Shown piece by piece: positions 1,576-17,017 of a DNA stretch of 64,000 bases. Origin of the DNA: a virus (Duplodnaviria > Caudoviricetes). Under the pieces are notes generated by a model that saw only the letters and a program-made list of their open reading frames with translations, had not been told where the DNA came from and ran no database searches. Both the position numbers and the translations under genes were made by a program. Position 1 is the stretch's first letter. Each line of letters opens with the position of its first letter. The stretch lies in IMG/VR virus record IMGVR_UViG_3300042372_000291, positions 43,732-107,731 of that record; one strand, written 5' to 3'.

Positions 1576-1609
1576 TACAGAGTAACAAACTAAAGAAAGG
1601 TGACAACTA

Positions 1610-1810: not shown

Positions 1811-1970
1811 GAAAGGAAAACTAAATGACACTAGAGGAATTTAGACAGTATCAACAAGCCCAATACGCAAAACAGCGTGAGGCTAATAAAGAAAAAATCA
1901 ACGCTATGTTTCATAGTAACTCTCGCCCATTAAATAATTCACACCTACTAAAGAAAGCAGAAAACTAAAA

Positions 1971-2228: not shown

Positions 2229-2419
2229 TGATGACACGAAAAGACTATGTAAAAACTTCAAACATTCTAAAGGGTTTTTCTGATGAAATTCATCCAGCAG
2301 TTTTTGAGGATTTGGTTGAGGAGTTTTGTCAATACTTTGCAAGCGATAATGAAAACTTTGATAAAGTAAGATTTGAAAAGGCTTGCGGTGTTGATGAGTT
2401 AGGATTGATGCTAGCATGA
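2228..2419 (+). CDS. Hypothetical phage protein (MTRKDY...F..DN.NFD..RF..AC type)
   Basis: SD AGGAG; motif typical of small phage proteins. Confidence 0.75.
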   Translation: MMTRKDYVKTSNILKGFSDEIHPAVFEDLVEEFCQYFASDNENFDKVRFEKACGVDELGLMLA

Positions 2420-2518
2420 ATAGATTTATAACTTCCCTTGTTCAAATTCTTTTGTGGTTTCCAGTTATTCTTATTTTAGTATTTGCATACAGAGAACGCA
2501 AAAAGCAAAAGTAAAAAA

Positions 2519-2547
2519 AGATCCTAAGCATGATTTAAAACTGCTTG
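2519..2547 (+). ncRNA. Repeated H-type pseudoknot, copy 1
   Basis: AGATC-ctaagcat-GATTT-aaaac-TGCTTG. Confidence 0.7.
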
Positions 2548-2602
2548 AAGCTTCAACTAAAATTTTCGACCCCCGCAGTCGGGCGTGTCGCTTTACGTAC
2601 GA

Positions 2603-2618
2603 TGTGATTTTTACCACA
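2603..2618. promoter_or_regulatory. CRP/GlxR-type box
   Basis: TGTGA-ttttta-CCACA, 1 mismatch. Confidence 0.6.
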
Positions 2619-2914
2619 ATTTTGAGCGGCGTGTCGTTTTGATTTTGTCGGTGATAAATGATAGGATTACAGAGTAATTAAATGAAAGGAAAACTAATGA
2701 GTGAGTTTATTTTAATTAAGTCAGTATGCGGAGAAAAGGGTTCTTTCGTAGATGTCTATGATTTAGACCTTAACCCTCATGGAGTTGTTTGTTGTGATAA
2801 TTGTCGCAGCATTGTGGCTACTCGTGAAAATTGGTTTGCCGAACACGGCGTGTCGGTTTGATTTTGTCAGACCACTATGGTAAGTTTGCAGTATTGAAAG
2901 AAAGGAAATGAAAA

Positions 2915-3115
2915 ATGGATAGAATAGAATACGCAGTAGAAAGAATTCACAATTGTGATGAGTGTGGAGGAACGGGCTCTCAGTTTTGGGCTAATGGTGA
3001 AGACTATGACTTTGAGACTTGTGAGGAGTGTAATCCTCACGAACTAATCTTTGACTATGATGGAAATGTAGTTTGGGATAACGGAACGCTATTTACAACA
3101 CAGGAGGCTAACTAA
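2915..3115 (+). CDS. Small Cys-rich (Zn-ribbon-like) protein
   Basis: CDECGG...CEECNP; SD GAAAGGA. Confidence 0.75.
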   Translation: MDRIEYAVERIHNCDECGGTGSQFWANGEDYDFETCEECNPHELIFDYDGNVVWDNGTLFTTQEAN

Positions 3116-3116
3116 A

Positions 3117-3410
3117 ATGGGAAGTAATTTTGCTAATGATTTAGTTACGCTTGGAGATTTGGGTATTGTCTTAGACATTGAAAGTCAGATAGGTATGCAC
3201 CTTCAGGCTAATCATTATCCACCTGTTCCCAAGTCTATGGTCAAGCCTTGTGTTGAGGCTATTGATGCAGTAAATGATTTAGGACTATGGAATTTGGACA
3301 TTGAGTTGCCTGAAGGTATCTCATGGCGTGGTTTGACTACCGCCCCCGCTTCGGCTATTATTGAAGCACACCACTTAGACGCTTGGATTATTGAACGAGA
3401 GGAATACTAA
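3117..3410 (+). CDS. Hypothetical phage protein (HLQANHYPPVP motif)
   Basis: ORF with SD. Confidence 0.8.
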   Translation: MGSNFANDLVTLGDLGIVLDIESQIGMHLQANHYPPVPKSMVKPCVEAIDAVNDLGLWNLDIELPEGISWRGLTTAPASAIIEAHHLDAWIIEREEY

Positions 3411-3411
3411 A

Positions 3412-3621
3412 ATGGAATACACTTACTCACTTACTACCTCGTATGACGGGGAACTAGTAAACACCTTGCGAGTATCAGACATGATGGAAGCAGTAGACGC
3501 ATGGAATAAATGCGTAGACTATGGAAATGCTAAAGACTATGCTACTTATAACCTATCAGACCCAACAGGTAAAATGTATACAAAAACTTTCTATGCCAAT
3601 GGCGAAGTAGTTATAAAATAG
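3412..3621 (+). CDS. Hypothetical protein
   Basis: Start moved to ATG 3412 after GAGGA SD. Confidence 0.75.
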   Translation: MEYTYSLTTSYDGELVNTLRVSDMMEAVDAWNKCVDYGNAKDYATYNLSDPTGKMYTKTFYANGEVVIK

Positions 3622-3628
3622 GTATACA

Positions 3629-3841
3629 ATGAAAACTATGGATTATCGCATGGTTGATGTTCTCAACGCAGACCAATTAGAAGTAAATGATCTAATTGGT
3701 GTTGCGGATGAGATTGTAAAAGTTATTTCAATTGCCCCGCTTTCTGATGGGTTTTCACTTGTAATTGAAAATGAATTTGGTGAAAAAGATTTAATTGAAA
3801 TTCTTGATGATGAACAATTTGAGTTATTTATTTTAGAATAA
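3629..3841 (+). CDS. Hypothetical protein
   Basis: ORF in operon. Confidence 0.7.
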   Translation: MKTMDYRMVDVLNADQLEVNDLIGVADEIVKVISIAPLSDGFSLVIENEFGEKDLIEILDDEQFELFILE

Positions 3842-4076
3842 AAGCTGCAAAAAATTTCGAGGGGCCCGAAATGTCCGAATTGCCCCTTTACGTCCGATTT
3901 GATTTTTTCCCCTATTTCTGATAAGATTATTCTATGTTTAAGAAATCTAGTGAACAATTACGTCATCTGCAGGAGCTACGCAGATCTAATGCCGCTACCC
4001 CTTTACGTAACAAGAAAAAATACACTAGACAAAGTAACAAAAAAATGTTAGACTTAGAAAGTAAAGAGAGGCCCCA

Positions 4077-4796
4077 ATGAAATTAAAACGCTCTAATGAT
4101 AGGAAAGTTACTAATGCTGTATCACCAAATGGAAAAACACCAACAATCGCCAACACTTTTGGATTACCTAGCGGCAAGGCTTACTCATGTCCTGGTGAGA
4201 CCTCTGTATGCGCTAAAGTATGCTACGCAGGAAAGCTTGAAAAAGTCTACAAAGGTGTAAGAGATACACTATTACACAATTGGAATTTATTAAAAGACGC
4301 AGACCATGACACAATGGAAGCATTACTTACAGACATGATTAATGATTTCAAGAAAGACTGTGAAAAACGAGAAGCCCCAATGTTATTTAGAATTCACTGG
4401 GATGGCGATTTCTTTAGTGACGAGTACGCATTCGCATGGAAGCATGTTATCTTAAATAATCCTGATGTTCAATTCTGGGTTTATACACGAGTAGCCTCTG
4501 CTGCCAATATGTTAAAAGATATAGATAACCTATCTCTCTATTTCTCAACAGATAGTGAGAATAAAGAAGTTGCTATTAGTCTTAATAAAGATAAGGGAAT
4601 TCGTTTAGCATACCTTGCCGATACCTTCGCAATTGGGCAGGCAGATCTAAAGGCAATGATAGGCAAGCCTGGCGCTAAGTGCCCTGAAAATAAAAAAGCA
4701 ATTCCGTTAATTGACAAAGAGGGCTCTGCCTGTGTAAAATGTTCTCTGTGTGTCTATAATAAGGCGGACATAGTATTCTCTGCTAAAAAGCGGTAG
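4077..4796 (+). CDS. GP88-like protein (radical-SAM-related, Cys-rich)
   Basis: CPG..SVCAKVCYA and FRIHWDGDF motifs. Confidence 0.75.
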   Translation: MKLKRSNDRKVTNAVSPNGKTPTIANTFGLPSGKAYSCPGETSVCAKVCYAGKLEKVYKGVRDTLLHNWNLLKDADHDTMEALLTDMINDFKKDCEKREAPMLFRIHWDGDFFSDEYAFAWKHVILNNPDVQFWVYTRVASAANMLKDIDNLSLYFSTDSENKEVAISLNKDKGIRLAYLADTFAIGQADLKAMIGKPGAKCPENKKAIPLIDKEGSACVKCSLCVYNKADIVFSAKKR

Positions 4797-4880
4797 AGAT
4801 AAACAGAAAGGCAAAACTAGTGGAACTAATAATCCTATTAGGCATAGCCCTGCTAGCAACACTAATAATGGCTGGGGGGA

Positions 4881-4896
4881 AGTGATTTACCTCACA
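4881..4896. promoter_or_regulatory. CRP/GlxR-type box
   Basis: AGTGA-tttacc-TCACA upstream of TTGACA at 4931. Confidence 0.55.
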
Positions 4897-4993
4897 AATC
4901 TCAAATAATGAGATTTTTAGGGAAAATAACTTGACAAAGCCAAAAATAAATGAAATAATAAATACCATAACCAACAACAAAGGAGAAATACAA

Positions 4994-5158
4994 ATGACAG
5001 TATCAGTATCAACTTACAAGGTCGGCGACACTTACACTTCACAGAAGTCAAAGGTCACAGGCGTTATCAAGGAAATCGTACCAACAGACAAGAACACAGT
5101 TCGTGTCAAACTTGATGTAGAAGGTCAGACACGCTGGACAACTTGGAAAGCAAACTAA
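4994..5158 (+). CDS. Small SH3-like protein
   Basis: AAGGAG SD before ATG 4994; paralog of 5766..5933. Confidence 0.75.
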   Translation: MTVSVSTYKVGDTYTSQKSKVTGVIKEIVPTDKNTVRVKLDVEGQTRWTTWKAN

Positions 5159-5179
5159 TTCCTAACAAAAAACAGGAAA

Positions 5180-5209
5180 AGTCCTGAGCATGACTACTAA
5201 AACTGCTCA
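5180..5209 (+). ncRNA. Repeated H-type pseudoknot, copy 2
   Basis: AGTC-ctgagcat-GACT-actaaaac-TGCTCA. Confidence 0.75.
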
Positions 5210-5281
5210 ATTTGATTTCTTATCTAATAAATGTTAGACTAGATACCCCCAACAAAACACCAACAGAAAGGTAATACATAA

Positions 5282-5704
5282 ATGGCACGACAGAAAGCAA
5301 TTAGCGTAAAAATCGCAACACCAAAGGTAATCAAGGCACTAGAAACTCGTCTAGCAGAACTAGAAAAGAACTATGCCTCACAAGAAGCCAACGAAGCAAA
5401 GCATGAAAAGGCTATGGAGAAGTGGCGCAAGGAAGTAGCAAAGTTCGCTATGGCTAATTTTGCTAAGGCAGAAAACTTCCGCACAAACTATCGCTCATGG
5501 AACAAGACACTCAATGTTGATTTTGATTTAACAGTTAGTGAAACAGACTTTCCTAAAGAGCCTGAGAAGGACTACGAAGTTCTACACCGCCACTCATACA
5601 ATGAGATGAAAGAGGAGTTATCTAACGCTATCCGTATTCTCAAGATGACAGATGAGGAAGTAGTTTCTACTTCTACTTACAACGCTATCGCCCGATACTT
5701 GTAA
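5282..5704 (+). CDS. Hypothetical coiled-coil protein
   Basis: Strong SD and promoter upstream. Confidence 0.85.
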   Translation: MARQKAISVKIATPKVIKALETRLAELEKNYASQEANEAKHEKAMEKWRKEVAKFAMANFAKAENFRTNYRSWNKTLNVDFDLTVSETDFPKEPEKDYEVLHRHSYNEMKEELSNAIRILKMTDEEVVSTSTYNAIARYL

Positions 5705-5710
5705 AATTAC

Positions 5711-5738
5711 TTTCCTGAGCATGAAATAAAACTGCTCA
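5711..5738 (+). ncRNA. Repeated H-type pseudoknot, copy 3
   Basis: TTTC-ctgagcat-GAAA-taaaac-TGCTCA. Confidence 0.75.
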
Positions 5739-5765
5739 ACACCCCAACTAAGAAAGGAAAATAAA

Positions 5766-5933
5766 ATGACACTAGGCGGATACACTTACCAAATTGGTGA
5801 TTTATTTACAACAAGCAAGACAGGCGTTACAGGACGAATTGAAAAGTTTGTTCCACAAAGTAAAAATGTAACTCGTGTAATGTTGCGCTTAGCAAACGGA
5901 CAACAGCGTTTTGCTATGGTAAAAACCTACTAA
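5766..5933 (+). CDS. Small SH3-like protein (MTLGGYTYQIGDLFTTSKTGVTG...)
   Basis: Manual translation, 55 aa, GAAAGGA SD. Confidence 0.75.
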   Translation: MTLGGYTYQIGDLFTTSKTGVTGRIEKFVPQSKNVTRVMLRLANGQQRFAMVKTY

Positions 5934-5938
5934 TAAAA

Positions 5939-5967
5939 TTATCCTGAGCATGATAAAAAACTGCTCA
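5939..5967 (+). ncRNA. Repeated H-type pseudoknot, copy 4
   Basis: TTATC-ctgagcat-GATAA-aaaac-TGCTCA. Confidence 0.75.
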
Positions 5968-5984
5968 AAAAATTTTCGAGAAAA

Positions 5985-6000
5985 TGTGACCAAGATCACA
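5985..6000. promoter_or_regulatory. CRP/GlxR-type box
   Basis: TGTGA-ccaaga-TCACA, perfect; promoter TTGTAT-17-TAGACT at 6020-6048. Confidence 0.75.
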
Positions 6001-6078
6001 CAGCAGCTTTACGGGGGATTTGTATTTTTTCCATATTTCTGCTAGACTTGGTATATACCCAAAGAAAGGATGCCCCTA

Positions 6079-6342
6079 ATGATATCAACCGCATTAGCAA
6101 TACAAGACGCAACAAAAGAAGCAATTCACGACGAGGATGTTATGGACATGGCTCGCTCTATTTATCTAAGCAGACATGAAGTTTCTGAGGATGAGTTTAT
6201 CAGAATGATGTACATTTATTCTGCTCATTTGTCTGCTATGACTGCTACTCTAGTTACTCATGCTTGCTTGACTGAAAGCCAACTAAATGATATGCTAGAA
6301 ACAATAAAAGAAATGGAAGCCCTAGGAAAGGATATAGAATAA
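6079..6342 (+). CDS. Hypothetical protein
   Basis: SD spacing favours ATG 6079. Confidence 0.75.
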   Translation: MISTALAIQDATKEAIHDEDVMDMARSIYLSRHEVSEDEFIRMMYIYSAHLSAMTATLVTHACLTESQLNDMLETIKEMEALGKDIE

Positions 6343-6752
6343 TGGAAGAAACAAATACACACTACATGACACGAGAGTTTCTTGAAACTACCCTTGTACA
6401 AAACAAGGAGCGCATTCAGCAACTTGAAGAGCACATACAGACAGTAACTCAGCGCTCATATGGTGAGGCTGCAGAGCGTAACCGTATGCGTAATGAAATG
6501 CAAGAATGGACCTTAGAAAACTTAAGCGACGGTACCATTTCAGAAGGTTCTGCAGAAGAGATTGCAAGCATTTGCGGTTTTGAGTTAACAAATGAATTTG
6601 AATTAGAGGTTACAGTTCAATATTCAGTTACAGTTAATGCTCGTGATGAAGAATCAGCAATTAATTTAATTCATGATATTGATTTTGATTCAGTGTCATA
6701 TCCTGAAGGTGTTACATATCTATCATCCACTGTTGACAGAATAGATTTGTGA
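6342..6752 (+). CDS. Hypothetical acidic protein
   Basis: Coupled TAATG junction. Confidence 0.8.
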   Translation: MEETNTHYMTREFLETTLVQNKERIQQLEEHIQTVTQRSYGEAAERNRMRNEMQEWTLENLSDGTISEGSAEEIASICGFELTNEFELEVTVQYSVTVNARDEESAINLIHDIDFDSVSYPEGVTYLSSTVDRIDL

Positions 6753-6765
6753 TAGGGGGCTATCC

Positions 6766-6795
6766 AAGGACCTGAGCACGTCTTTAAACTGCTTT
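6766..6795 (+). ncRNA. Repeated H-type pseudoknot, copy 5
   Basis: AAGGAC-ctgagcac-GTCTTT-aaac-TGCTT. Confidence 0.7.
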
Positions 6796-6865
6796 CGCCA
6801 GGCTGATTAGGGCGATCATAGAAATACTATAGAGCTAGTTCATTGGGGGACTAAAAGAACCCATA

Positions 6866-6893
6866 CTACCTGAGCATGTAGGAAAAAGGCTCA
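6866..6893 (+). ncRNA. Repeated H-type pseudoknot, copy 6
   Basis: CTAC-ctgagcat-GTAG-gaaaaa-gGCTCA. Confidence 0.7.
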
Positions 6894-6910
6894 AAAAATT
6901 TTCGACCCGC

Positions 6911-6926
6911 TGTGATTTTGATCACA
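6911..6926. promoter_or_regulatory. CRP/GlxR-type box
   Basis: TGTGA-ttttga-TCACA, perfect. Confidence 0.75.
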
Positions 6927-7027
6927 TTTACGATGGTGTCCGATTTTTCCCAATTTCTAATAACCCTATTTGACTTTGTCAGTCCTGTCTGCTAAGATTG
7001 ATTCATATCAAGAAAGGATATTAATAA

Positions 7028-8044
7028 ATGGCACATGAACTAGAAACCCAAAATGGCGTTGCCTCATTCGCATCATTCCGTGAACCTGCTTGGCATGGTT
7101 TAGGAACTGTATTCACAGAAGAAAAAACAACAACAGAAATGTTGTCTGCTGCTAATCTATCTAATTGGAATGTTCGTCTTGAAGACGTAAATATTCCATC
7201 TCACTTATCATCAGATAAGAATTACCAATATGTTGTTCGTACTAATCCTACTGACAATTCCCAGACAGACATTTTAGGTGTTGTCGGTGAGCGTTACCAT
7301 GTTTTGCAGAATGAGGATTTATTCTCATTTGGTGATAACATTCTTGACGGTGGAGGTCGTTGGGAAACTGCTGGCTCTATTCGTGGAGGTCGTGTAGTAT
7401 TTGGTTCTCTTGCTCTTGAACGTGAGACAGTACTAGACCCTAGCGGTGTTGCAGATAAGGTAAAAACTTATTTGCTCATTAACACATCACATGATGGCTC
7501 AATCGCTATTCAAGCAAGCATTACACCTGTTCGTGTAGTGTGCGCTAACACTCTCAATCTTGCTTTAGGCTCTAAGCGTGGCAAGAACGCTATCAAGCAA
7601 TCTTTCAAAATCCGTCATACTCAGACGGCTAATGGTAAGGTTCAAATTGCTCGTGAGACTTTAGGTCTTGCTAATAAATACATGGACGCTTTTGATGTTA
7701 TGGCTAAGGCTATGATTGAAAAAGAAATCACCGCTGGTCAATTCAATGACATTATTCTTGCTGCTTACCCTAAGCCTGAAAAAGATGCTAAGGGCGCAAT
7801 CAAGAAGTGGGAAAACAAGGTTGATGTTATCAATGACATTTACACAGGCGAATTCAATGGTATGATTGCTAATACCGCTTGGGGTGCTTTCAATGCTCTA
7901 ACTGAACGCCTTGATTGGCACCGCTCTGCTCGTGGTGGGAATAACGAAAGTATTCTTGCTGCTGCTTCTGGTTTTGATGCTACAATTACAGCAGAAAAAA
8001 ATCGTTTGCTAAAAGTTGTAAAAGATGTTTTAGCGATAGCGTAA
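7028..8044 (+). CDS. DUF932 / TIGR03299 phage-plasmid family protein
   Basis: REPAWHGLG, ETAGS..GGR, LLINTSHDGS, TPVRVVCANTL motifs. Confidence 0.85.
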   Translation: MAHELETQNGVASFASFREPAWHGLGTVFTEEKTTTEMLSAANLSNWNVRLEDVNIPSHLSSDKNYQYVVRTNPTDNSQTDILGVVGERYHVLQNEDLFSFGDNILDGGGRWETAGSIRGGRVVFGSLALERETVLDPSGVADKVKTYLLINTSHDGSIAIQASITPVRVVCANTLNLALGSKRGKNAIKQSFKIRHTQTANGKVQIARETLGLANKYMDAFDVMAKAMIEKEITAGQFNDIILAAYPKPEKDAKGAIKKWENKVDVINDIYTGEFNGMIANTAWGAFNALTERLDWHRSARGGNNESILAAASGFDATITAEKNRLLKVVKDVLAIA

Positions 8045-8055
8045 ATAAATACGCA

Positions 8056-8083
8056 ACTCCTGAGTAAGAGTATAAACTGCTCA
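8056..8083 (+). ncRNA. Repeated H-type pseudoknot, copy 7
   Basis: ACTC-ctgagtaa-GAGT-ataaac-TGCTCA followed by a T-tract. Confidence 0.75.
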
Positions 8084-8215
8084 CTTTTTTATTTAGATCA
8101 AAAGCTGCTAAAAAAATTCGAAACCATGATATTTTTTTATATTGTTTAATTACGAACGACTTGCTTTTTTCCCCAGTTTTTGGTATTCTTTATTTACCAC
8201 AGAAAGGAAAAATAA

Positions 8216-8449
8216 ATGTCTAGTTTTCTAGAAAATGAAAATCAAATGGTTATTGATGCTATCTATCATGAGATTGGAGAAATGCTAGTTGAAGACTGGG
8301 TTAACTCCAATTTAGATGAAGGGCAGATGTTTGCAGATTTTAGATTTGCAGAGATGTCTGATGATAATTACATTAAGGGTAGATTTAATCTATTCTATGA
8401 TTTAAAACCAGGGGACCAATACTATCTAGAATGGGATGAGGAAGCATAA
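8216..8449 (+). CDS. Hypothetical acidic protein
   Basis: GAAAGGA SD. Confidence 0.75.
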   Translation: MSSFLENENQMVIDAIYHEIGEMLVEDWVNSNLDEGQMFADFRFAEMSDDNYIKGRFNLFYDLKPGDQYYLEWDEEA

Positions 8450-8625
8450 TGTTGGGTTATGACTTAGAGGATTTAAACATAATGATGGATTCACTAGCAG
8501 AGGTTATTCAGATTGAAGAATCTTCTCAAACCCCGTCAATTTCTGATAGGAATCTAGGAGGACTTAAAACAAGCTTGTTTTTCTTACAAGGCTTGTGGGC
8601 AGAAGGGTATTTTGACTGAGGGGCA

Positions 8626-8641
8626 TGTGTCCTAAATCACA
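8626..8641. promoter_or_regulatory. CRP/GlxR-type box
   Basis: TGTGT-cctaaa-TCACA, 1 mismatch; TTGACA at 8663. Confidence 0.55.
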
Positions 8642-8721
8642 CCCAAAAGGCTTTACGAACGCTTGACAAAAACCCCCATTTTTTGAGATAATTGCATTAC
8701 GACCAACAGAAAGGACCCTAA

Positions 8722-9474
8722 ATGCCAAATTATTGTTTTAATACCTTGACTATTCAAGGACCGAAAGAACAAGTAGACTCTATTAAGGCTAAGTTAAATG
8801 AGCCTTTTCAAAGACATCATGACCAATGGAATACAGAAACTCAGCAAATGGAAATAAAAGAGTATTTCTATAATAATCCTGTGTTTGCATTTTGGAATAT
8901 TTATAATCCAGTACAAGACGGTATCTCTAACGAGGTCTACCTAGGTCAGCCTGACCATACTATTCCATTTGCAGAACAAATGAAATTTAAGACTAATGAT
9001 TGGTATTCATGGAATGTCCGTAATTGGGGAACCAAATGGGATGTTGCTGTAGGAGATGAAGATAACTATCCTGATACAGAGTTATTAGAACATATGGATA
9101 GAGGAGAAGACCAGTGGGTTATTTATAAGTTCAATACCGCTTGGTCTCCACCTGCTCCTGCTATGGAGAAGTTGTCTGCTCTAGTTCCTAACTGTGTAGT
9201 TACTCTTTCCTTTGAGGAAGAAACAGGTTGGGGTGGCGAGTATGAGTTTGTCAATGGAGAAATGACTGCAGAATCTAATTATGATTCTAAGTGCCGTGAC
9301 TGTGATGCAGAAGACCAAATGGAATACTGCGAAAACGATTGTGGAGAAATCTGCAGTGCTTGTCATTGGTTAGGTGAGGCAGACCTAGAGTGTGTTGCAG
9401 AATGTGATGAGCACAAGATATACTTGGACGAGGAACATGTACCAGATTACAGAAAGGATGAAATCAATGTCTAA
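8722..9474 (+). CDS. DUF1281/YubB-like ferredoxin-fold protein with Cys-rich C-terminus
   Basis: MPNYC.N.L, WN..NWGTKW, F.TAWSPP motifs. Confidence 0.75.
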   Translation: MPNYCFNTLTIQGPKEQVDSIKAKLNEPFQRHHDQWNTETQQMEIKEYFYNNPVFAFWNIYNPVQDGISNEVYLGQPDHTIPFAEQMKFKTNDWYSWNVRNWGTKWDVAVGDEDNYPDTELLEHMDRGEDQWVIYKFNTAWSPPAPAMEKLSALVPNCVVTLSFEEETGWGGEYEFVNGEMTAESNYDSKCRDCDAEDQMEYCENDCGEICSACHWLGEADLECVAECDEHKIYLDEEHVPDYRKDEINV

Positions 9475-9670
9475 TTACTTATTAGAATATATGAAGATAC
9501 ATCTAATTAGTTTAGAACAAGATTTAGAGAATATAGCCCAAGAAATGGAATTGCTTGACCCTGAATCTAAAGCCTGTAAAGAATTAGACTATGAATATAA
9601 TCATATGTCAGGACAGATTCTTTCTACCCGCCATTTTATACAGGTAGGAGAAGAACATGCAGGCAATTAA
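9467..9670 (+). CDS. Hypothetical protein
   Basis: GAAAGGA SD before ATG 9467. Confidence 0.7.
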   Translation: MSNYLLEYMKIHLISLEQDLENIAQEMELLDPESKACKELDYEYNHMSGQILSTRHFIQVGEEHAGN

Positions 9671-9932
9671 TGAGTTAGAACCATATCTGCAGAAGGCTGT
9701 TGACGCTGGCATATCTGGATTGGATATCATGCACGGTCATCTCAAAACATTAATGCTGGAGGCTGAGCGGGAACTAGAAGAGGCAAGCCGCATTGAGATT
9801 GAGAACGACTATTCAGACGCAATAGAATCCATGGAGCGTAAATACTGGGAAGGCCAATGTGACGCTCTTTCACACCTATATGCATTAACATATCAACTAT
9901 CATTTGCCATAGCAGAAAGGGACGGGCAATGA
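9657..9932 (+). CDS. Hypothetical protein
   Basis: Overlapping operon ORF. Confidence 0.75.
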   Translation: MQAINELEPYLQKAVDAGISGLDIMHGHLKTLMLEAERELEEASRIEIENDYSDAIESMERKYWEGQCDALSHLYALTYQLSFAIAERDGQ

Positions 9933-10264
9933 GTTTAGATCTACAAGAACAAACACGTATGCTAGATGTATATCGTGATATTGAAGATATCATTGACAGA
10001 ATTAGTAAACTTCCTATTGGAATGCCGCTAGTCTGGGTATATGTCTGGGATGTTGCTCGTCAACTATGGCATGACATCATGGAAGGTCAGGAAGAAGAAT
10101 TCTGCACAGCCATGGATGAAGAAGAGATGTGGGAACTGTTTTGGACCCAGGCTGATAAGAATGGGTTTACTTTAGAATACGGAACAGAGGACCTATATGA
10201 GTCTATCCGTGATTGGATGTTTGACCAGGGTATTATTGAAGAAGTAGAAGAGGAAGAGGAATGA
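9929..10264 (+). CDS. Hypothetical acidic protein
   Basis: ATGA overlap. Confidence 0.75.
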   Translation: MSLDLQEQTRMLDVYRDIEDIIDRISKLPIGMPLVWVYVWDVARQLWHDIMEGQEEEFCTAMDEEEMWELFWTQADKNGFTLEYGTEDLYESIRDWMFDQGIIEEVEEEEE

Positions 10265-10331
10265 TGTACGAGCAGTTGACATTAAACTTAGATTTTGATA
10301 TCATTGAGCAAACTATAGAAAGGGAAGAGTA

Positions 10332-10679
10332 ATGGGAGCTCGTTGTACATTTGTATTTAAACAGTCAGAGGAGCAAGCTGTAGCACTATACAGTCATTGG
10401 GGTGAAGACTCTATGTATGAGGACCTAGCAGCAGCATTGCGACATGCAGCACCACGGGTAGGAGACCAATCCTACTACGTAAGAATGGCAGTTAGTTATT
10501 TACTGCAGCATAGTATTTTGGATGAGACAGGTTATGGCCTATATGCATGTAATCCTAATGACCTAGGTTTCATGGACCATCCAATTGTAATTAATCTATT
10601 AGATAGTACAATTCAAGATGACACTGGAATTCACACTATTGATGAATTTGTTAATTATCATGCAGGCCTAAAGGTTTAG
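10332..10679 (+). CDS. Hypothetical phage protein (MG.R...LYSHWG type)
   Basis: SD and own promoter; Y.HW motif common in phage early proteins. Confidence 0.8.
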   Translation: MGARCTFVFKQSEEQAVALYSHWGEDSMYEDLAAALRHAAPRVGDQSYYVRMAVSYLLQHSILDETGYGLYACNPNDLGFMDHPIVINLLDSTIQDDTGIHTIDEFVNYHAGLKV

Positions 10680-10685
10680 TTGAGG

Positions 10686-10775
10686 GTCCGTGTGGTGAGC
10701 GGACTGTATACGTGGGACGAGGGGTCCTCCCACGACAATAAGGGTGGAGCGCAGGCTGTGGTGGGCTTGCGCTCC
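10686..10775 (+). ncRNA. GC-rich three-hairpin structured element
   Basis: Stems GTCCG/CGGAC, CGTGGGA/TCCCACG, GGAGCGCAGGC/GCTTGCGCTCC. Confidence 0.5.
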
Positions 10776-10812
10776 CCCAACATCTTTGATACAATAAGAG
10801 AGGGTATAAATA

Positions 10813-11052
10813 ATGACATACAGGATTAGTAAGGGGATTACCCCCGAAGAGCGAGTAGCCAAAAGACTAAAAACAATTGTAGAAGACTTAGATTTAGACC
10901 TAGAACAAACTGGAGTAATGCTTGCTAGAGTATTGCCACATTTGACTTATACAAGATTAGTCACTATGATAGAAGCGGCACAAGAGGAAAAAGAGTTTAT
11001 TCTAAACCCTAAGAAGCGACATGAAAGTTGGATACAAAATGGACTATGGTAA
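10813..11052 (+). CDS. Hypothetical protein
   Basis: ORF with SD. Confidence 0.75.
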   Translation: MTYRISKGITPEERVAKRLKTIVEDLDLDLEQTGVMLARVLPHLTYTRLVTMIEAAQEEKEFILNPKKRHESWIQNGLW

Positions 11053-11347
11053 GGTAGCAGACATACTAGCAGTAATCTATAATGATGGTGTAGATTTAGA
11101 AGCAGTAGAATACCTGCCTTCTGAGTATTGGTTAGAGTGTGAGGACGGGATAACCCTTGCTACATTTATTTCATCTGGTTGGGCAGAGCCTACCGAAATG
11201 GGTAAATCTCAGTTAGAGTATGCCTGGCGTGTTCTTTGTGCTGCCAGAAGTCTTGACCCTGAAATAATGTATGAAACTCCACTTGAGTTTTTTGAGGCAC
11301 AGATAGTAGAAGCTGATGTTATCCCAATTGAGGAGGGTAGAAAGTAA
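11039..11347 (+). CDS. Hypothetical protein, paralog of the next gene
   Basis: Similar DY....IL...Y and G..LA....G....TE.G patterns. Confidence 0.7.
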   Translation: MDYGKVADILAVIYNDGVDLEAVEYLPSEYWLECEDGITLATFISSGWAEPTEMGKSQLEYAWRVLCAARSLDPEIMYETPLEFFEAQIVEADVIPIEEGRK

Positions 11348-11631
11348 TGCTTGACTATAAAACAAAATGCAATATTCTATCAGATCTATGGGAGAACTAT
11401 AGAGATGAAGAATCTTTTATAGATTTTATTGAATATAACGATCTTGGATTACCTATGGCATATATGCTACGGGAAGGTTTAGTCAACGAGGTAACAGAAA
11501 CAGGACAGTTATATATCAATGAGACATTTAATTTATTTATTGCTGCCCTTCAAATTAAAGAAGAAGAAATCAAAGAAGGCACAACATTAGATATCTTATT
11601 AGATATGGCTGAGAAAAAGCAAAACCCATAA
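11347..11631 (+). CDS. Hypothetical protein (FIEYNDLGLPMAY)
   Basis: Coupled ORF. Confidence 0.75.
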   Translation: MLDYKTKCNILSDLWENYRDEESFIDFIEYNDLGLPMAYMLREGLVNEVTETGQLYINETFNLFIAALQIKEEEIKEGTTLDILLDMAEKKQNP

Positions 11632-11662
11632 GATTTTTCGACAAACCTTTTAGGAATTTATT

Positions 11663-12323
11663 AGATTACGAACATCGAATATTTTTCCCATTTTTTTAGA
11701 TTACGAACAAACAATATTTTTCCCCAAACCCTATATCCAAACATATCTATATCCTTATACCAGGTATACTTCTTATAGTAGTAATTGGTATTCTTTATAT
11801 ACCCCGCCATTTTTGAAAAAATAAGATTACGAACGAGCTTTTTTAAGCCCAGCATTTTGACGGGCATCTTACCACACGACGGGCGTTTTGTCAAGGGGCG
11901 CAAAAAACGGGACGGTATAAAAAAGATTACAACCAATACCCTATATACAAACACTATATCCTGGATAAAATAGATTACGAAAGCTATAAATTTTTTCCTG
12001 GATTTTCCAAATATTATCCATATATTTTATAACATTTTGTTATTGTTTTCCACAATTTTGAGCAATTTTTATAACATTTCTATATCAAATATTGAGACAT
12101 GTTTTGCTCATATTGTGGGTAAATGGATACTTGACAAACAATTTGATATGTGGTATATGGGGAAATTCCCTGTTTTAAAATTTGGAAAGGGGGTTTTGCC
12201 GCTGCAGCATTACGAACGCCCCTCTTAAAAGTGGTCCATTCCCCACTATCCTCCACTTTCCTCCATTCATAGAATATAAAATTATCCACAGTAAGATTTA
12301 AATGTGGATAAACCTGTGGATAA
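11663..12323. repeat. Putative replication origin: AGATTACGAAC iteron-like repeats and DnaA boxes
   Basis: Repeats at 11663, 11698, 11824, 11924, 11972, 12208; DnaA boxes 12282-90, 12303-11, 12315-23; no credible ORF. Confidence 0.55.
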
Positions 12324-12330
12324 CTATGAA

Positions 12331-12963
12331 TTATTGCCTATATTTTTGTCTATTTATTTCCCAATTGTCAATATCTCTTGGTAGATCAAAGTCTTCTGTC
12401 CAATCATTTATCTTTACTACATCAAAGCTATGCTTGTTAGTTTTTAACTGTTCGTATAAACACCAACCACCAGGTAGATTAAAATAATCAGAAGACTCTA
12501 TAATAGAGCGTATTGTATTATCTAGTATAGGTATAGACTTTCCATTAAACCCAATTCCCCATATTTCTTTCCAAGGCTTTCCAGTTATCTCTGAAGCCCT
12601 ATCCCTAAGATAAAATGATAGATCAGATTTATCATTCATTATTGTTTCAACTGCTTCATCTGTAAAATATACATCTGCAAAAACGAGAATATTTCTCTCT
12701 GATGACCATATATCCCTGCTAGACCAAAACTTGGCTACATCTTTCCATGCTTTATCAACAGGGGGGACATAGGTTTGAGCCCCATTTACGGTATCTTCTC
12801 CATCATTACACACTATAACAATATTATCTGTATACTTAGAAAACTGCCTATAAGTTCTTTCAATTAATACTTCTTCTTCAATTAATAAACGATGCTTGGG
12901 GGTTCCCCTATAATTTCCCCACCTGGTTCCATTTCCTGCAGCTAATATTAAAACCTTTATCAT
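12331..12963 (-). CDS. Nucleotidyltransferase (NTP_transferase family)
   Basis: LILAAGNGTRW...PKH N-terminal motif. Confidence 0.8.
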   Translation of the reverse strand: MIKVLILAAGNGTRWGNYRGTPKHRLLIEEEVLIERTYRQFSKYTDNIVIVCNDGEDTVNGAQTYVPPVDKAWKDVAKFWSSRDIWSSERNILVFADVYFTDEAVETIMNDKSDLSFYLRDRASEITGKPWKEIWGIGFNGKSIPILDNTIRSIIESSDYFNLPGGWCLYEQLKTNKHSFDVVKINDWTEDFDLPRDIDNWEINRQKYRQ

Positions 12964-13152
12964 AAATCAAGAATACCATATCTGGTATCATAGATATATG
13001 TATTGTCGTCATGTTTATGAGTATGTTTATGCAGATATCTGCCCTCATTGTGGGAAAGATACTCATGAAACTGATTGGAAATTTGAAGCAGAATTACATA
13101 AAGAGTGGATATCATCTGGTAAAGCATCTTCTCAGGGGTGGTGGTCTATCTA

Positions 13153-13377
13153 ATGCCTAGCCAAGAATCAAAATGGTATAAAGATATAAGACTGATTAAG
13201 GCTTTGGACGAAATTCGTCAGAAGAATCTGGCCTTTATGTCTTATTGTTATTATTGTGACGCTAAGTCCATAGATATAAAAGCAGTCAAAGAAAAGCTAT
13301 ATCCTGTATGTGAAAAACATGATCAGGAAAATAACATAAATAAACTATTGGAGTCTCAATCCTCATTTGAGGAATAA
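13153..13377 (+). CDS. Small Cys-containing hypothetical protein
   Basis: CYYC...CEKH. Confidence 0.55.
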   Translation: MPSQESKWYKDIRLIKALDEIRQKNLAFMSYCYYCDAKSIDIKAVKEKLYPVCEKHDQENNINKLLESQSSFEE

Positions 13378-13565
13378 TACGAGGGTAGATCAGTAAAATC
13401 CCCATATGCTTCTTCGCATAATGGGCAATAACTATTAGCAGTATTTGTTTGATCTAGGCTAATCAGCAATAATCCCTTATCCTGCATATCTAATATTTCT
13501 GGATCTACTCGTCCATGGATTATAGGTATTAATTTAGCTTTACATGTTATACAGTTTGTTATCAT
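13356..13565 (-). CDS. Small Zn-ribbon protein
   Basis: CITC...PIIHG...CPLC. Confidence 0.65.
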   Translation of the reverse strand: MITNCITCKAKLIPIIHGRVDPEILDMQDKGLLLISLDQTNTANSYCPLCEEAYGDFTDLPSYYSSNED

Positions 13566-13640
13566 ACTAGGATAAGTTTAGCATACTTCTATATACCGCC
13601 CTGATTTGCATACTGCCCATATATGCGCTATAATTGATAC

Positions 13641-13712
13641 TAGAGACGTTAGCCCTCCCTTTCTGGGGCTATTTCCTCTTCTCCTGAGCATGAGGTTAAA
13701 AGGCTCCCTTTC
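13641..13712 (+). ncRNA. Putative small RNA ending in pseudoknot copy 8
   Basis: TTGCAT-17-TATAAT promoter; hairpin TAGCCC/GGGCTA; TCTC-ctgagcat-GAGG-ttaaaa-gGCTC. Confidence 0.6.
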
Positions 13713-13751
13713 TGTATTGAAATACTGCCCATGTTGTGAGATAATGAATAT

Positions 13752-13940
13752 ATGAGTGATTTAGATGAATTTATGAAAGACCCATGGAAACGATTTAATG
13801 AAATGCGTAAAACCCCACATGAATGTGATTATGACTATAGAATAGACTCATCAGGAACAATGTTTTTTGAAATATGTAAATTATGCTTAGATACAAAAGG
13901 GGTCGTTGAAATGAATAATAATGAGGAATTAAATGATTAA
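13752..13940 (+). CDS. Hypothetical protein, probably leaderless
   Basis: GATAAT 6 nt before ATG. Confidence 0.6.
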   Translation: MSDLDEFMKDPWKRFNEMRKTPHECDYDYRIDSSGTMFFEICKLCLDTKGVVEMNNNEELND

Positions 13941-14604
13941 AAATGAATGTAAAAAATGTGAGATGAGCTTTAAAGATCCTTTATATTGGGATGTTCATCA
14001 AACTATGTCAGATAATAGTATTTGGTGTGTAGTTAGAAAACCTTAACCATACCGCCCTGTTTAGGGCATATGTTGGTTTTAGTTTTCTATTTTCCGCCGA
14101 ACTTAAAAGATTGACTTTGGCCTATTTTTTCGCTATACTTGATATATGGGTAGAGTTGTAATTTGTGACATTTGTAAAAAAGAAATAGAGTTGCGATGGG
14201 GCATTTTTGGACATGATACTTTATACCGTCATAGAAAGGAACATAAGTGAACGAGCAAGAATTACGTGAACAGATAGCAAAAGAGATTGAAACAATTGAA
14301 ATTCAAACAAGTATTACAAACGCACTAGGTATGCGTATTATGGCTGCAAAAGTTGCAAGAGGAGAAAAATGAAAAAACAAAAATATTTTACTAAAAACAT
14401 AAATAATGAGTTGGAAGTCATTGATGAAGATATTGTTAATGATGTTATTAGGCAATACATTGAGAGAAAGTATATAGGGGTAATAGTACTATCTACCTTT
14501 ATTATTAGCTTTCTTCTTGGAGTTATTGCTTCTTGACATACCGCCCCACTTATGCTAAACTATTAAAGCAAGGGAATGCGTAACTATACAGAAAAGAGAG
14601 AGCA

Positions 14605-14982
14605 ATGAATCCTGAAATAACGCTAGTGGGTCGTCTTGGTACAGATCCAGAAAAAATCGGAGACAAGGGTGTACGTCTTCGTATTGTAACAAGTGATCGT
14701 GTAAAAAGTGCATCTGGTGAATGGTCGGACAAGGATACTTCTTGGTGGACTGTTAAGCTTTGGAATAAGCCAGCAGAGCAAGCATTTACAACGATTAAGA
14801 AGGGCCAAGAAGTTATGGTCCGTGGAACAATTTATCAAGACACTTGGACTGATAAAGATGGTTCAAGTCGTAGCACTTACGAAGTAAGAGGAGAGTCTAT
14901 TGGAGTAACATCCTATACTCTTGCAAAGAATGCGTCGCCATCAATGGCAATGACAGTATCCACTGAGGATCCGTGGAAATAA
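14605..14982 (+). CDS. ssb: Single-stranded DNA-binding protein (bacterial type)
   Basis: ITLVGRLGTDPE, KKGQEVMVRG, acidic DPW tail. Confidence 0.9.
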   Translation: MNPEITLVGRLGTDPEKIGDKGVRLRIVTSDRVKSASGEWSDKDTSWWTVKLWNKPAEQAFTTIKKGQEVMVRGTIYQDTWTDKDGSSRSTYEVRGESIGVTSYTLAKNASPSMAMTVSTEDPWK

Positions 14983-15014
14983 AAATGCGTCATTAATATG
15001 ACTTCATTGAAGAT

Positions 15015-15060
15015 TGGAGGGCGGTAAGAATTGATAACTTCCGTCCTCCACTTCGGTGGA
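15015..15060. terminator. Hairpin(s) between convergent genes
   Basis: TGGAGGGCGG/CCGTCCTCCA; overlapping TCCAC-TTCG-GTGGA. Confidence 0.55.
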
Positions 15061-15068
15061 TTGCAAAT

Positions 15069-15872
15069 TTAGCTATTATTATCGTCAATTGCTTTATTTA
15101 ATACTGCAAAATCAACAAATGATCCAGTAAACAACATACTTCCCATATGCTGTAGTTTTACCCAAGGCATTAACCAAGTTTTATATCCAATTTTATTTGC
15201 CCAACGTGTAAAGAAATAGTCCTCTGACAAATATGTATTGTCAATTTCATCAATCTTACAATCAAAATAAGCAAACATAGGTTCTTCAGTTTTTGCATTT
15301 ACATATCTTTGCTCTGGGTATGCTTCGTAAAACTTTTCAAATACTTCTCTTGCAATGAGCATAAATCCAGTACTGCCATCTTTAATTTCTACTGGGTTGG
15401 TTAATGATATTTCTCTTTTTTCACCATAAAAATTAATACCGTATCTACCAGAATATTTCATATAATCAGATTCTTGTTTAATTAGTCCAAGATCTTTTGC
15501 TTTTTGTATTCTGTCCCATACAATTGTTTTATGTGGATATGGTCCAACAATTATCTGCTTGTCATCGTTTGTAGCAGCAAGATATACAGCATGTATAAAA
15601 TCAATATAATCAAAAGAGATATCGCCATCAATAAAAAATAGATAGTCGTAGTCACTATCTAAAAATTGTTTAACAATTTCGTTTCTTCCACGAGCAATCA
15701 GTGACTCTGAAGTTATATATGTCATTCCTAGCTTTATATTTTCTTTAGCACAAAAAATAGAAAGCCTCATCATTGACTCAAAATAATTGGCAAAGCTCAT
15801 ACCGCCATACATTGGAGTACCAACCATGACGGATTTTCCTCTAACTACATTTAAATCTATATTGTTATCCAT
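15069..15872 (-). CDS. GT-A fold glycosyltransferase-like protein
   Basis: TPMYGG, SLIARGRN, FIDGD, TGFMLI, YLSEDY motifs. Confidence 0.75.
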   Translation of the reverse strand: MDNNIDLNVVRGKSVMVGTPMYGGMSFANYFESMMRLSIFCAKENIKLGMTYITSESLIARGRNEIVKQFLDSDYDYLFFIDGDISFDYIDFIHAVYLAATNDDKQIIVGPYPHKTIVWDRIQKAKDLGLIKQESDYMKYSGRYGINFYGEKREISLTNPVEIKDGSTGFMLIAREVFEKFYEAYPEQRYVNAKTEEPMFAYFDCKIDEIDNTYLSEDYFFTRWANKIGYKTWLMPWVKLQHMGSMLFTGSFVDFAVLNKAIDDNNS

Positions 15873-16065
15873 AATTCCCCTTTCCTAAATTATACACCAT
15901 AGTTGCACTATTTGATGTTTTCTGATATCATGTATGTATGGCTGAGGTATCTTTTAATATTACAAAAATAGGTCACGAAGTGGTATTTTGTACCCTTTGT
16001 TTTGCCATGGTACCGTCAGACAAGCAGTCAAATCATGTTCGTTGGCACGATAGGATGAAAGAATA

Positions 16066-16302
16066 ATGGCATACGTTATAACAGATGCATGTAATGATAT
16101 TAAAGATAAATCTTGTATTGATGAATGCCCTGTAAATTGTATTTATGAAGGAGATCAACAGCTTTTCATAAACCCAGATGACTGTATAGATTGCGGTGCT
16201 TGTGAGCCTGTTTGTCCAGTTAATGCAATATATTATCAAGATGATTTACCACAAAACAAAAAAATATTTATAGAAATTAATAAAAATTTCTTTAATAACT
16301 AG
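16066..16302 (+). CDS. fdxA: 7Fe ferredoxin (actinobacterial FdxA-like)
   Basis: YVI..AC.DIKDKSCIDECPV.CIYEG; CIDCGACEPVCP. Confidence 0.85.
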   Translation: MAYVITDACNDIKDKSCIDECPVNCIYEGDQQLFINPDDCIDCGACEPVCPVNAIYYQDDLPQNKKIFIEINKNFFNN

Positions 16303-16312
16303 GGAATTGGTT

Positions 16313-17017
16313 ATGTCAAAAAAAATTATTTTTAAAGCAATGGATGAAGAAGGTTTTAATATTCAGGATAGACCATATCCAGCATCCAAAGCTATTCCAG
16401 AATGGTGGAAAAATCATAGCATATATGATAATGGCTCAAACAAGCTTGAATTGATTAACAGAACTCCAAACTTTTCTTTTAAAAAATGTACTCCAATGCT
16501 AGATGCATTAACGTCTGGCTATATAATACCCTTACACGCAGATGTATTAGTTTCAAGACAAGAAGACAGAGTTTTTCTATCTTGGAAAACAGAAAAAGAT
16601 ATTTTTCAACTACATGGTCAATCATCACATAATGTAGAAGCACCACCTGGATATAGTAATTTAGTTTTTAAATATTTAAATACTTGGATTCCAATTACTC
16701 CAAAGGGTTATTCTGTATTAATTACAAGTCCATTTGGATATAGAAATTTGCCAATGATGGCTATACCAGCTATAATTGACTCAGATAGATCTTTATTAGA
16801 CATGGCAAACCCTATGTGGATTAAAGATGATTTTGAAGGCATTATAGAGAAAGGAACTCCATTGATACAAGTTACTCCATTTAAAAGAGATGATTGGGAA
16901 GCCTCTTTTGAGCACTTTAAAAAAGATGAATGGAAAACTCATACTGAAAAGAACTTTTCAGCAAACATAGTAGGACACTATATTAAGAATATTTGGTCAA
17001 AAAAAAACTATAAGTAG
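16313..17017 (+). CDS. dUTPase-like fold paralog 1 (DUF6065-like)
   Basis: P.WWK, C..GY.IP, TPKGYS, IIDSD, KGTPL.Q..PFKR. Confidence 0.7.
   Translation: MSKKIIFKAMDEEGFNIQDRPYPASKAIPEWWKNHSIYDNGSNKLELINRTPNFSFKKCTPMLDALTSGYIIPLHADVLVSRQEDRVFLSWKTEKDIFQLHGQSSHNVEAPPGYSNLVFKYLNTWIPITPKGYSVLITSPFGYRNLPMMAIPAIIDSDRSLLDMANPMWIKDDFEGIIEKGTPLIQVTPFKRDDWEASFEHFKKDEWKTHTEKNFSANIVGHYIKNIWSKKNYK

Follow-up and report, generated by a model that had tools for sequence, protein, structure and literature searches.

A predicted phage small RNA family with a terminal pseudoknot and hairpin loops complementary to early Shine-Dalgarno sites

Analysis of a 64,000-nucleotide stretch of freshwater phage DNA (hereafter the window; bases 43732-107731 of the 107,731-base IMG/VR virus record IMGVR_UViG_3300042372_000291, which has 35.5% G+C and is rated 100% complete by CheckV) points to a small RNA (sRNA) gene on its + strand, with a predicted product of about 74-76 nt (13641..13716). 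Comparison with related phages gives good support for its assignment as a stand-alone, non-coding member of a previously uncurated phage RNA family. The loops of this RNA are complementary to AGAAAGG, the Shine-Dalgarno (SD) sequence of the early-block genes, and we tentatively propose, giving the idea somewhat less than an even chance, that it is a stand-alone anti-SD sRNA that acts without a chaperone and is selective for the early SD class.

A structured RNA family

The locus occupies divergent intergenic space between a minus-strand 69-aa open reading frame (ORF; 13356-13565) and a plus-strand 62-aa ORF (13752-13940), and all of its parts are on the + strand. Promoter P1, of sigma-70/sigmaA type, is formed by the -35 hexamer TTGCAT (13606..13611) and the -10 hexamer TATAAT (13629..13634), separated by a 17-nt spacer; the 5' end of the RNA was placed from the -10 hexamer and its 3' end from the pseudoknot and the U/C-rich tail. 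In the minimum free energy (MFE) fold, an outer helix of AGAG (13642-13645) with CUCU (13676-13679) spans 13642..13679 and encloses hairpin hp1 (13650..13671), which has the stem UAGCCC(U)/(G)GGGCUA and the loop CCCUUUCU (13657-13664); taken as 10 nt, this loop reads UCCCUUUCUG. The hairpin is followed by the CU-rich linker UUUCCUCUUCU (13672..13682, with TTTCCTCTT at 13672-13680), which is kept in the relatives L172 and L173 and is terminator-like together with hp1 in a terminator scan, then by an H-type pseudoknot (13680..13706; stem S1 13680-13683/13692-13695, stem S2 13686-13689/13703-13706, A-rich loop 3 13696-13701) and finally by the U/C-rich tail CCUUUCUGUA (13707..13716), which with C13706 reads CCCUUUCUGU. 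A second CTCCCTTTCT lies at 13704-13713. The first-pass annotation had described this promoter, hairpin, linker, pseudoknot motif and second CTCCCTTTCT, and all of them are found where it had placed them. On the + strand of the 107.7-kb genome, TCCCTTTCT occurs only in the hp1 loop and in the tail copy, and AGAAAGGA is present 12 times on the + strand and never on the - strand.

Searches of IMG/VR phage contigs yielded 22 distinct two-hairpin and three one-hairpin members of the family, the window copy included. In the relatives L003/L004 and L005, reached via SSB homology, the homologous element is longer. A pseudoknot-plus-tail pattern located seven loci, a two-loop pattern returned 75 stretches, among which 26 loci (22 distinct sequences) were true members and the other 49 were coding repeats or chance matches, and a third pattern returned nine stretches that include two further short-form copies, L172 and L173. 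The shared layout, from 5' to 3', consists of a near-consensus promoter, the hairpins hp0, hp1 and hp2, the H-type pseudoknot, a U/C-rich tail and the promoter of the next gene. Hairpin hp0 is variable, with stems that, read by eye, include AGAAGGG/CCCUUCU, AGUCAA/UUGACU, AAGAGC/GCUCUU and AGAGGGAA/UUCCCUCU, and the loops of hp1 and hp2 each read (U/A)(C/A/U)CCUUUCUG in the two-hairpin relatives; the CU motif is displayed two to four times per RNA in identical hairpin loops.

The window copy lacks hp0 and hp2, and L172 and L173 have the same one-hairpin layout. The outer AGAG/CUCU helix here stands where the longer relatives have their variable 5'-terminal hp0; the helix sequence is conserved yet invariant in L172 and L173 and hence offers no covariation for that helix. 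Compensatory changes do occur among the short forms, both in hp1 (UAGCCC/GGGCUA versus UGGCCC/GGGCCA in L173) and in the pseudoknot (GAGC/GCUC versus GGGC/GCCC), which marks the one-hairpin form as a maintained subfamily and not a relic. The tail varies in relatives (CCUUUCU, ACUUUCU, AUCUUUUU, and UUUUUUU in L059) and behaves as a U/C tract rather than as a third seed; the second CTCCCTTTCT, previously taken for a further anti-SD copy, is thus a variable stretch that relatives do not conserve.

Covariation supports the structure throughout. In alignment A1 (21 sequences; L021 was omitted as identical to L020 over the range), 96.3% of 438 cells are paired and both partners have changed at 12 of the 21 pairs; 500 shuffles gave no score as high, and controls with slid 3' partners were only 40-50% paired. 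The hp1 helix is 99.2% paired, with compensatory changes at four of its six pairs, and hp2 is 100% paired. The stems change at nine of 12 pairs while the loop sequence is invariant, an invariance partly forced by the two-loop search pattern, which tells against giving it full weight in the functional proposal below. In six distinct loci retrieved without the loop motif, CCUUUCUG is present in 12 of 12 loops, like a conserved unpaired seed; the CU-rich loops, on whose conservation the first-pass annotation had let its reading depend, are therefore kept in relatives on covarying stems. A covariance model built from A1 (R1) gave one strong match per phage (94-109 bits) and matched the window at 13648-13717 (52.8 bits, E 7.7e-11).

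The same alignment indicates the RNA strand. A1 contains 22 G.U/U.G cells and no A.C cell, which identifies the + strand as the RNA strand, in agreement with the direction of the promoter. A product of the minus strand, either the 37-aa ORF at 13578-13691 or an RNA whose loops CAGAAAGGGA would act as a GGA-loop sponge for CsrA, or else a DNA-level protein site, is hardly tenable. The ORF does have a AGAAAGGGAG motif 12 nt upstream of its ATG, and the divergent intergenic space adjoins a minus-strand gene; on that strand, however, the 22 G.U cells would become A.C mismatches with no reverse case, and the conserved promoter points rightwards. The GGA of a CsrA sponge would thus lie on the strand that both G.U cells and promoter disfavour, and CsrA is not known from Actinobacteria. 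The 37-aa ORF was rejected as a product since its frame is not conserved, being lost, as read by eye, in the homologous L004 element. As for a DNA-level site, the stems covary and the half-site sequences are not conserved, unlike those of protein operators.

The pseudoknot is the most recurrent part of the locus. The motif CCTGAGCATG..GCTC gives five exact matches, against none in 100 shuffles, and allowing two mismatches yields eight + strand copies, all within 2520-13706 of the window. Besides that of the sRNA, these are located at 2520..2546 (S1 GAUC/GAUU), 5180..5208 (AGUC/GACU), 5711..5737 (UUUC/GAAA), 5940..5966 (UAUC/GAUA), 6768..6794 (GGAC/GUCU), 6866..6892 (CUAC/GUAG) and 8056..8082 (ACUC/GAGU). 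Alignment A2 comprises 36 distinct copies, eight from the window and the rest from relatives, picked with an anchor that left S1 unconstrained. In A2, S1 is 98.6% paired with compensatory changes at three of its four pairs, two positions showing all four Watson-Crick types, and S2 is 96.1% paired with two of five pairs compensatory; none of 500 shuffles reached the score and slid controls were 30-41% paired. Two interleaved helices, each supported by covariation, make up an H-type pseudoknot, and the terminal pseudoknot of the first-pass annotation is accordingly real. Its consensus, NNNC-CU-GAGCA-N-GNNN-A-rich-UGCUC, spans 27-30 nt with a 4-bp S1 and a 4-5-bp S2. Five relatives carry five to eight co-oriented copies each, that of the sRNA always being the last, and most copies stand 3-14 nt 3' of a stop codon, several being followed by promoter-like sequence (by eye). 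We thus view the pseudoknot as a putatively new, heavily covarying element that would also mark early gene ends, and infer from these positions that it may help to form or protect the 3' ends of RNAs.

Some pseudoknot copies are followed by AAAAATTTTCGA and a TGTGA-N6-TCACA palindrome (repeat family D4; window 1358-1415, 5943-6000 and 6869-6926). We take this palindrome to be CRP/GlxR-like from the consensus of those sites.

Several features describe a stand-alone transcription unit. A promoter of the form TTGNNN-16..18-TANANT lies at a fixed distance upstream of 22 of 23 family copies, the 23rd having a cut flank. A scan found no more promoter-like sites than shuffles did (8 versus 8.6), so that the P1 match alone is not above chance; its position is nonetheless conserved in relatives. 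Downstream of the window copy, promoter P2 (TTGAAA-17-GATAAT with a TG upstream of the -10; 13717..13745, +) has a -10 that ends 6 nt before the ATG of the 62-aa ORF (13752..13940, +), which has no family match and would be transcribed from P2 as a leaderless mRNA. In 19 of 23 copies, a loose regular expression finds a -10-like hexamer within 90 nt downstream, placed 5-9 nt ahead of an ATG or GTG, and this spacing is the arrangement expected for leaderless mRNA. The neighbourhood of the sRNA differs between L005, L004 and the window, and L009/L010. Its own promoter, that of the next gene and the varied placement in relatives all argue for the stand-alone non-coding unit that had been suggested. 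The accompanying statement that the region has no ORF holds in that the sRNA contains no conserved one, the AUG within the pseudoknot being ACG or AAG in other copies; taken literally it needs qualifying, as the region is overlapped by mechanical ORFs: one of 49 aa (+) that begins within the -35 hexamer, one of 37 aa (-, 13578-13691) and one of 27 aa (-).

Two promoter features were noted in passing. The motif TAC(C/T)GCCC stands directly 3' of the -35 in several local promoters (window 13594, 13611, 13723, 14050 and 14539), among them that of the sRNA itself and those of leaderless genes, and it also occurs in relatives. A 46-nt promoter-like repeat (CGGCGTGTCG..TTGATTTTGTC..N..TAGACT/TAGGAT; family D6, window 1425-2891), present in four copies where the early block begins, forms a promoter class distinct from the TTGNNA-TACCGCCC type clustered at 13594-14561.

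Loop complementarity to early Shine-Dalgarno sites

The + strand of the genome has 22 AGAAAGG sites, of which 18 fall within window positions 860-16848; 16 of the latter lie 7-12 nt before a start codon. These 16 SDs (860, 1189, 1594, 1810, 2899, 5265, 5751, 6063, 7011, 8201, 8708, 9451, 9914, 10317, 14233 and 16848) define an early block on the + strand (860..16854). By a uniform rule for start-proximal sites, all 16 belong to the early + block and none is late, and GGAGG is found 22 times on the minus (late) strand, twice in the early + block and once on the minus strand within window positions 1-17100. Later genes, which the first-pass annotation had considered mainly leaderless, are instead mostly led by GGAGG. 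The sRNA gene stands downstream of 14 of the 16 AGAAAGG SDs. All five relatives fetched use AGAAAGG in their early blocks, with 7-15 sites each, every one upstream of the sRNA gene.

The host of the phage is probably actinobacterial. The phage's DnaE-like polymerase, terminase and early DUF932 protein are each about 53-55% identical to counterparts in 120-135-kb Streptomyces phages, and we used as a further pointer a WhiB-family ORF (window 28707-28880, -; 97-aa open frame; Pfam Whib 45.4 bits versus a cut-off of 23.6), in a search for which Corynebacterium glutamicum was the sole match among 14 control genomes. In all 30 rRNA loci read, which come from one actinobacterial class, the 16S rRNA has CACCTCCTTTCT as its 3' end, and the loop core CCUUUCU equals the 3'-terminal heptamer of these sampled genes. 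Because the 16S 3' end has this sequence, AGAAAGG(A) is predicted to be an SD for the distal part of the 16S tail.

The earlier claim of anti-SD complementarity is borne out, in that the loops complement the early SD AGAAAGG and that AGAAAGGGA stands at the SD of ORF 10332-10679 (10317..10325, +). Being the complement of TCCCTTTCT, AGAAAGGGA occurs in the genome only at 9914 and 10317, each time with an ATG 6 nt further on. CAGAAAGGGA (9913..9922, +), which forms the SD region of ORF 9929-10264, complements the 10-nt loop UCCCUUUCUG over its full length and appears to be the best candidate target. Nearest-neighbour duplex energies, which ignore loop constraints, were compared for the loop and for the 16S tail on two early SDs, with values of -11.7/-10.3 and -15.6/-9.4 kcal/mol, the latter for ORF 9929-10264; the loop is favoured on both. 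On a canonical GGAGG example the values were -5.1/-13.6 kcal/mol, the loop being strongly disfavoured. A loop dG of -8 kcal/mol or lower was obtained for nine of 16 early start regions versus eight of 97 late ones.

We therefore describe the proposed mode of action in conditional terms. The sRNA would end at the pseudoknot and tail and would pair in trans, without a chaperone, with ribosome-binding sites (RBSs) of the AGAAAGG type, in competition with the 16S tail. Pairing would lower the translation and/or the stability of AGAAAGG-led mRNAs. The presumed targets are phage early mRNAs, foremost those of ORFs 9929-10264 and 10332-10679; mRNAs of the host or of rival phages that use this SD might also be among them. 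Messages that are leaderless or led by GGAGG would escape. If the sRNA does compete with ribosomes for one SD class, the phage would partition translation among distal-SD, core-SD and leaderless mRNAs. A wider version, in which this mimic of the 16S tail sorts mRNAs by their mode of initiation and silences the AGAAAGG class, be it the phage's own early genes, host genes with that SD or the early genes of superinfecting relatives, seems to us unlikely: if true, it would represent an RNA-level switch of the translational programme, or an exclusion weapon, on a mobile, moron-like module.

Evidence against the proposal and alternative explanations

Several observations weigh against an anti-SD sRNA selective for the early class. 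The +1 position of early SDs is A in 48 of 73 cases and G in 8 of 73, so that they look tuned to 16S rRNA and not to the sRNA, and the loop matches over 9-10 nt at only two SDs of the window. Single-sequence MFE values are no better than those of shuffles (z 0.30 for the window copy, -1.16 for L004), and the case for the structure rests on covariation. No canonical intrinsic terminator was found 3' of the pseudoknot, where a U/C-rich tract lies instead, and the distance from the pseudoknot to the next -10 is 8 nt in several relatives, so that read-through is possible. Since the sRNA promoter is of the host sigma-70 type, nothing in it indicates delayed expression. The 16S sample came from 68 pattern-positive genomes among 151 sampled, all of a single actinobacterial class reached via an unrelated locus. 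Finally, the one RNA run that shares words with the window, labelled as a lake water metatranscriptome, shares a small part (6% of words) and gives over window positions 12000-16000 a single 262-nt contig (14634-14895) within the SSB gene, which is uninformative on the sRNA.

A possible co-adaptation of the SDs to the sRNA through a C at position -1 (31 of 73 sites pooled; 5 of 16 in the window alone, p 0.12) speaks no more in favour of the proposal. We dropped this argument because the pooled phages share these sites by homology, their leaders are generally rich in A and C and the +1 position favours a 16S-like A.

The distribution of the sRNA belongs with these points. Retrieval with the DUF932 protein gave 80 relatives (86-96% identity), of which only 13 have an R1 match at E<=1e-6, and considering the 53 loci with at least 9 kb downstream, about 13 carry the sRNA, counting L198, which was detected by hairpin scan only. 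In five AGAAAGG-rich relatives, searches of the whole records gave only pseudoknot-level R1 matches (22-29 bits), and two of these five sRNA-less records are 92-100% complete. In favour of the proposal there is a loose association: six of six sRNA-bearing loci with a length of 19 kb or more contain 11-16 AGAAAGG SDs, and 13 of the 21 sRNA-less loci have 2-6. These loci lack phylogenetic independence and include two identical pairs. Because the sRNA is missing from most close relatives, two of them near-complete and with AGAAAGG-rich early blocks, it appears to be an accessory, optional modulator rather than a core early-to-late switch, and the temporal switch of the first-pass annotation, at least in its essential form, is excluded. 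An optional modulator, a host-takeover RNA and an exclusion device are all possible roles. Overall, the anti-SD function remains plausible by analogy with a close mechanistic precedent (see below), and it is its temporal-switch form that the patchy distribution weakens.

These same observations bear on another role for the loops. CsrB/RsmZ are sponge RNAs in which several hairpins present GGA loops that bind CsrA. By a design akin to theirs, the copies of the 16S heptamer could be decoys that titrate a factor recognising the anti-SD tail, such as a ribosome-targeting nuclease or defence toxin, a 16S maturation or assembly factor, or ribosomal protein S1 or bS21; the likeness to CsrB/RsmZ is one of design only, several hairpins showing one short loop motif. 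The match of the loop core to the 16S end in 30 of 30 sampled loci, the sponge-like repetition of the motif in identical loops and the early SDs' apparent lack of adaptation to the sRNA would all suit a decoy, and a patchy, moron-like distribution with variable position is what an accessory counter-defence or host-takeover gene might show. On the other hand, there is no known or adjacent partner protein, the neighbouring ORFs being variable and without family match; the mimicry extends over just 7 nt, and the CCUCC core is missing in many members (e.g. those with stems CAUCGC and CGCAGC). Base pairing is also a simpler use for a sequence to which 16 SDs of this very genome are complementary. 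We hold a decoy to be rather improbable; if it did capture an anti-SD-directed factor, it would embody a new counter-defence principle.

The lack of a canonical terminator raises the question of whether the element acts in cis. It could be the 5' leader of the downstream operon transcribed from P1, working as an RNA polymerase modifier or insulator, as do the RNA polymerase-modifying RNAs HK022 put and lambda nut, or as a stabilising structure, with P2 adding a leaderless isoform. In agreement with this, the next promoter overlaps the tail, the element is always just 3' of a strong promoter and 5' of + strand genes, and an antiterminator might be needed to read through the five to eight co-oriented pseudoknots that each phage has along its early units. 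However, on P1 read-through the AUG of the next ORF would be internal and without SD, which leaves the leader of no use for its translation, and the downstream gene differs among relatives where the RNA is constant. Each genome has, moreover, a single copy, located where the early block ends and not where it begins, and identical loops on freely covarying stems point to a sequence-specific contact in trans. A cis-acting leader is thus, in our judgement, of low probability.

The CU motif could also be incidental, hp1 and UUUCCUCUU ending P1 transcription at about 35-40 nt as a terminator or attenuator, with the pseudoknot as a generic 3'-end or processing element. The terminator scan indeed flags hp1 (13650-13671) with UUUCCUCUUC, but in the window only: the hp1 of two-hairpin relatives has AAGUCG or AAAU behind it, with no U run. 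A loop that stays invariant while stems change at nine of 12 pairs is not required of a mere terminator, and a promoter driving only a terminator has no evident use. Loops of the form UCCCCUUUCU(G/U) on plain terminators in L187 and L189-L191 could be cited in support, even if the recurrence of one loop on unrelated hairpins speaks for its being under selection. We consider an incidental motif quite improbable, and retain pairing with early SDs as the preferred reading.

The hairpins of these four sRNA-less relatives (L187, L189, L190 and L191) deserve a separate mention. They are GC-rich, terminator-like and followed by a U run, about 2.6 kb past the DUF932 gene (in L189 at approximately 13560-13680), and present the same CU motif in the UCCCCUUUCU(G/U) loop at an apparent mRNA 3' end. 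They can be read as support for the terminator or as a second display of the same seed, borne by a 3' untranslated region.

Known RNAs and genome setting

At the gathering score, Rfam matched only tRNAs in the window. No match was obtained at E<=1 over 17.4 kb from six loci, and at E<=10 on 13560-13760 and 5100-7000 there were only matches far below threshold, none of them to 6C or PreQ1. Searches of GenBank phages by blastn with a 4-kb stretch of the window and with the 112-nt L004 element gave no match. In 185,579 representative prokaryote genomes, a loop-plus-pseudoknot pattern returned 41 stretches, all chance-like inside genes and none with the hairpins, and no host or prophage copy was found in these genomes. 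The one literature collection searched yielded no account of such a phage sRNA.

The closest worked-out analogue of the phage sRNA appears to be the 6C sRNA of Actinobacteria, known as B11 in Mycobacterium tuberculosis and M. smegmatis. Loops of the 6C family have six or more cytosines. The C-rich hairpin loops of 6C pair with the G-rich RBSs of panD and dnaB and repress both genes, without the chaperones Hfq or ProQ (PMC6486639). Both are small hairpin RNAs of actinobacterial setting with pyrimidine-rich loops as pairing sites for purine-rich RBSs. In contrast to 6C, the loop of the phage RNA is CCCUUUCU, with four C in UCCCUUUCUG and no run of six or more; the RNA is phage-borne, ends in a 3' pseudoknot instead of a plain terminator, has a loop equal to the 16S 3' heptamer and gives no Rfam match to 6C. 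Its novelty relative to 6C would consist in being phage-borne, copying the 16S 3' heptamer, ending in a pseudoknot and, as predicted, selecting one SD class in its own genome.

Other likenesses are more distant. In the UCCC-motif sRNAs of Firmicutes (the RNAIII hairpins, RsaE/RoxS), several C-rich loops pair with the SDs of many mRNAs; these are chromosomal RNAs of another phylum and another sequence family, whereas the phage sRNA has no Rfam match. Compact H-type pseudoknots with an A-rich loop 3 are known from the preQ1-I aptamer and luteovirus frameshift knots, and the 27-30-nt terminal element of the phage RNA shares their topology. Its copies follow stop codons or stand at the sRNA 3' end, unlike those knots, which belong to 5' leaders or slippery sites.

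On the target side, a parallel is offered by the start-associated sequences (SAS) of Cluster K mycobacteriophages, conserved SD-containing motifs that lie in one orientation a few bases upstream of the starts of a block of non-structural genes (PMC3203893). The SAS is a 13-bp sequence, GGGATAGGAGCCC, whose conserved flanks are unable to pair with 16S rRNA, and the authors of that paper left open whether its binding partner is an RNA or a protein, and whether host- or phage-encoded (PMC3203893). AGAAAGG differs in pairing fully with the 16S tail and in having a candidate complementary RNA, none being described for SAS. If the wider sorting role were true, it would supply the phage-encoded RNA partner left open for such actinophage sequences. 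Phage regulatory RNAs are poorly known outside enterobacterial prophages and the sRNA biology of Actinobacteria is thin, and a new structured RNA family of more than 20 distinct members with a testable sequence logic is of interest in both respects.

Some further repeats and features of the window were recorded. Three direct repeats of about 28 nt ending in TTAGATTACGAAC (family D15; window 11646-11834) sit in the gap between the early block and a minus-strand NTP-transferase gene. Inside the tRNA cluster, Rfam gives a tRNA match of 42.3 bits at 17275-17345 that ARAGORN does not call, and a pseudoknot-like motif lies at 17282-17306 on the opposite strand. Diverged repeated gene segments with 61-76% identity (families D3, D5, D9 and D10) are located at 24637-24774, 52986-53123 and 55632-55769, and also at 22380 and 35722; scattered through the minus-strand block, they suggest a paralogous gene family.

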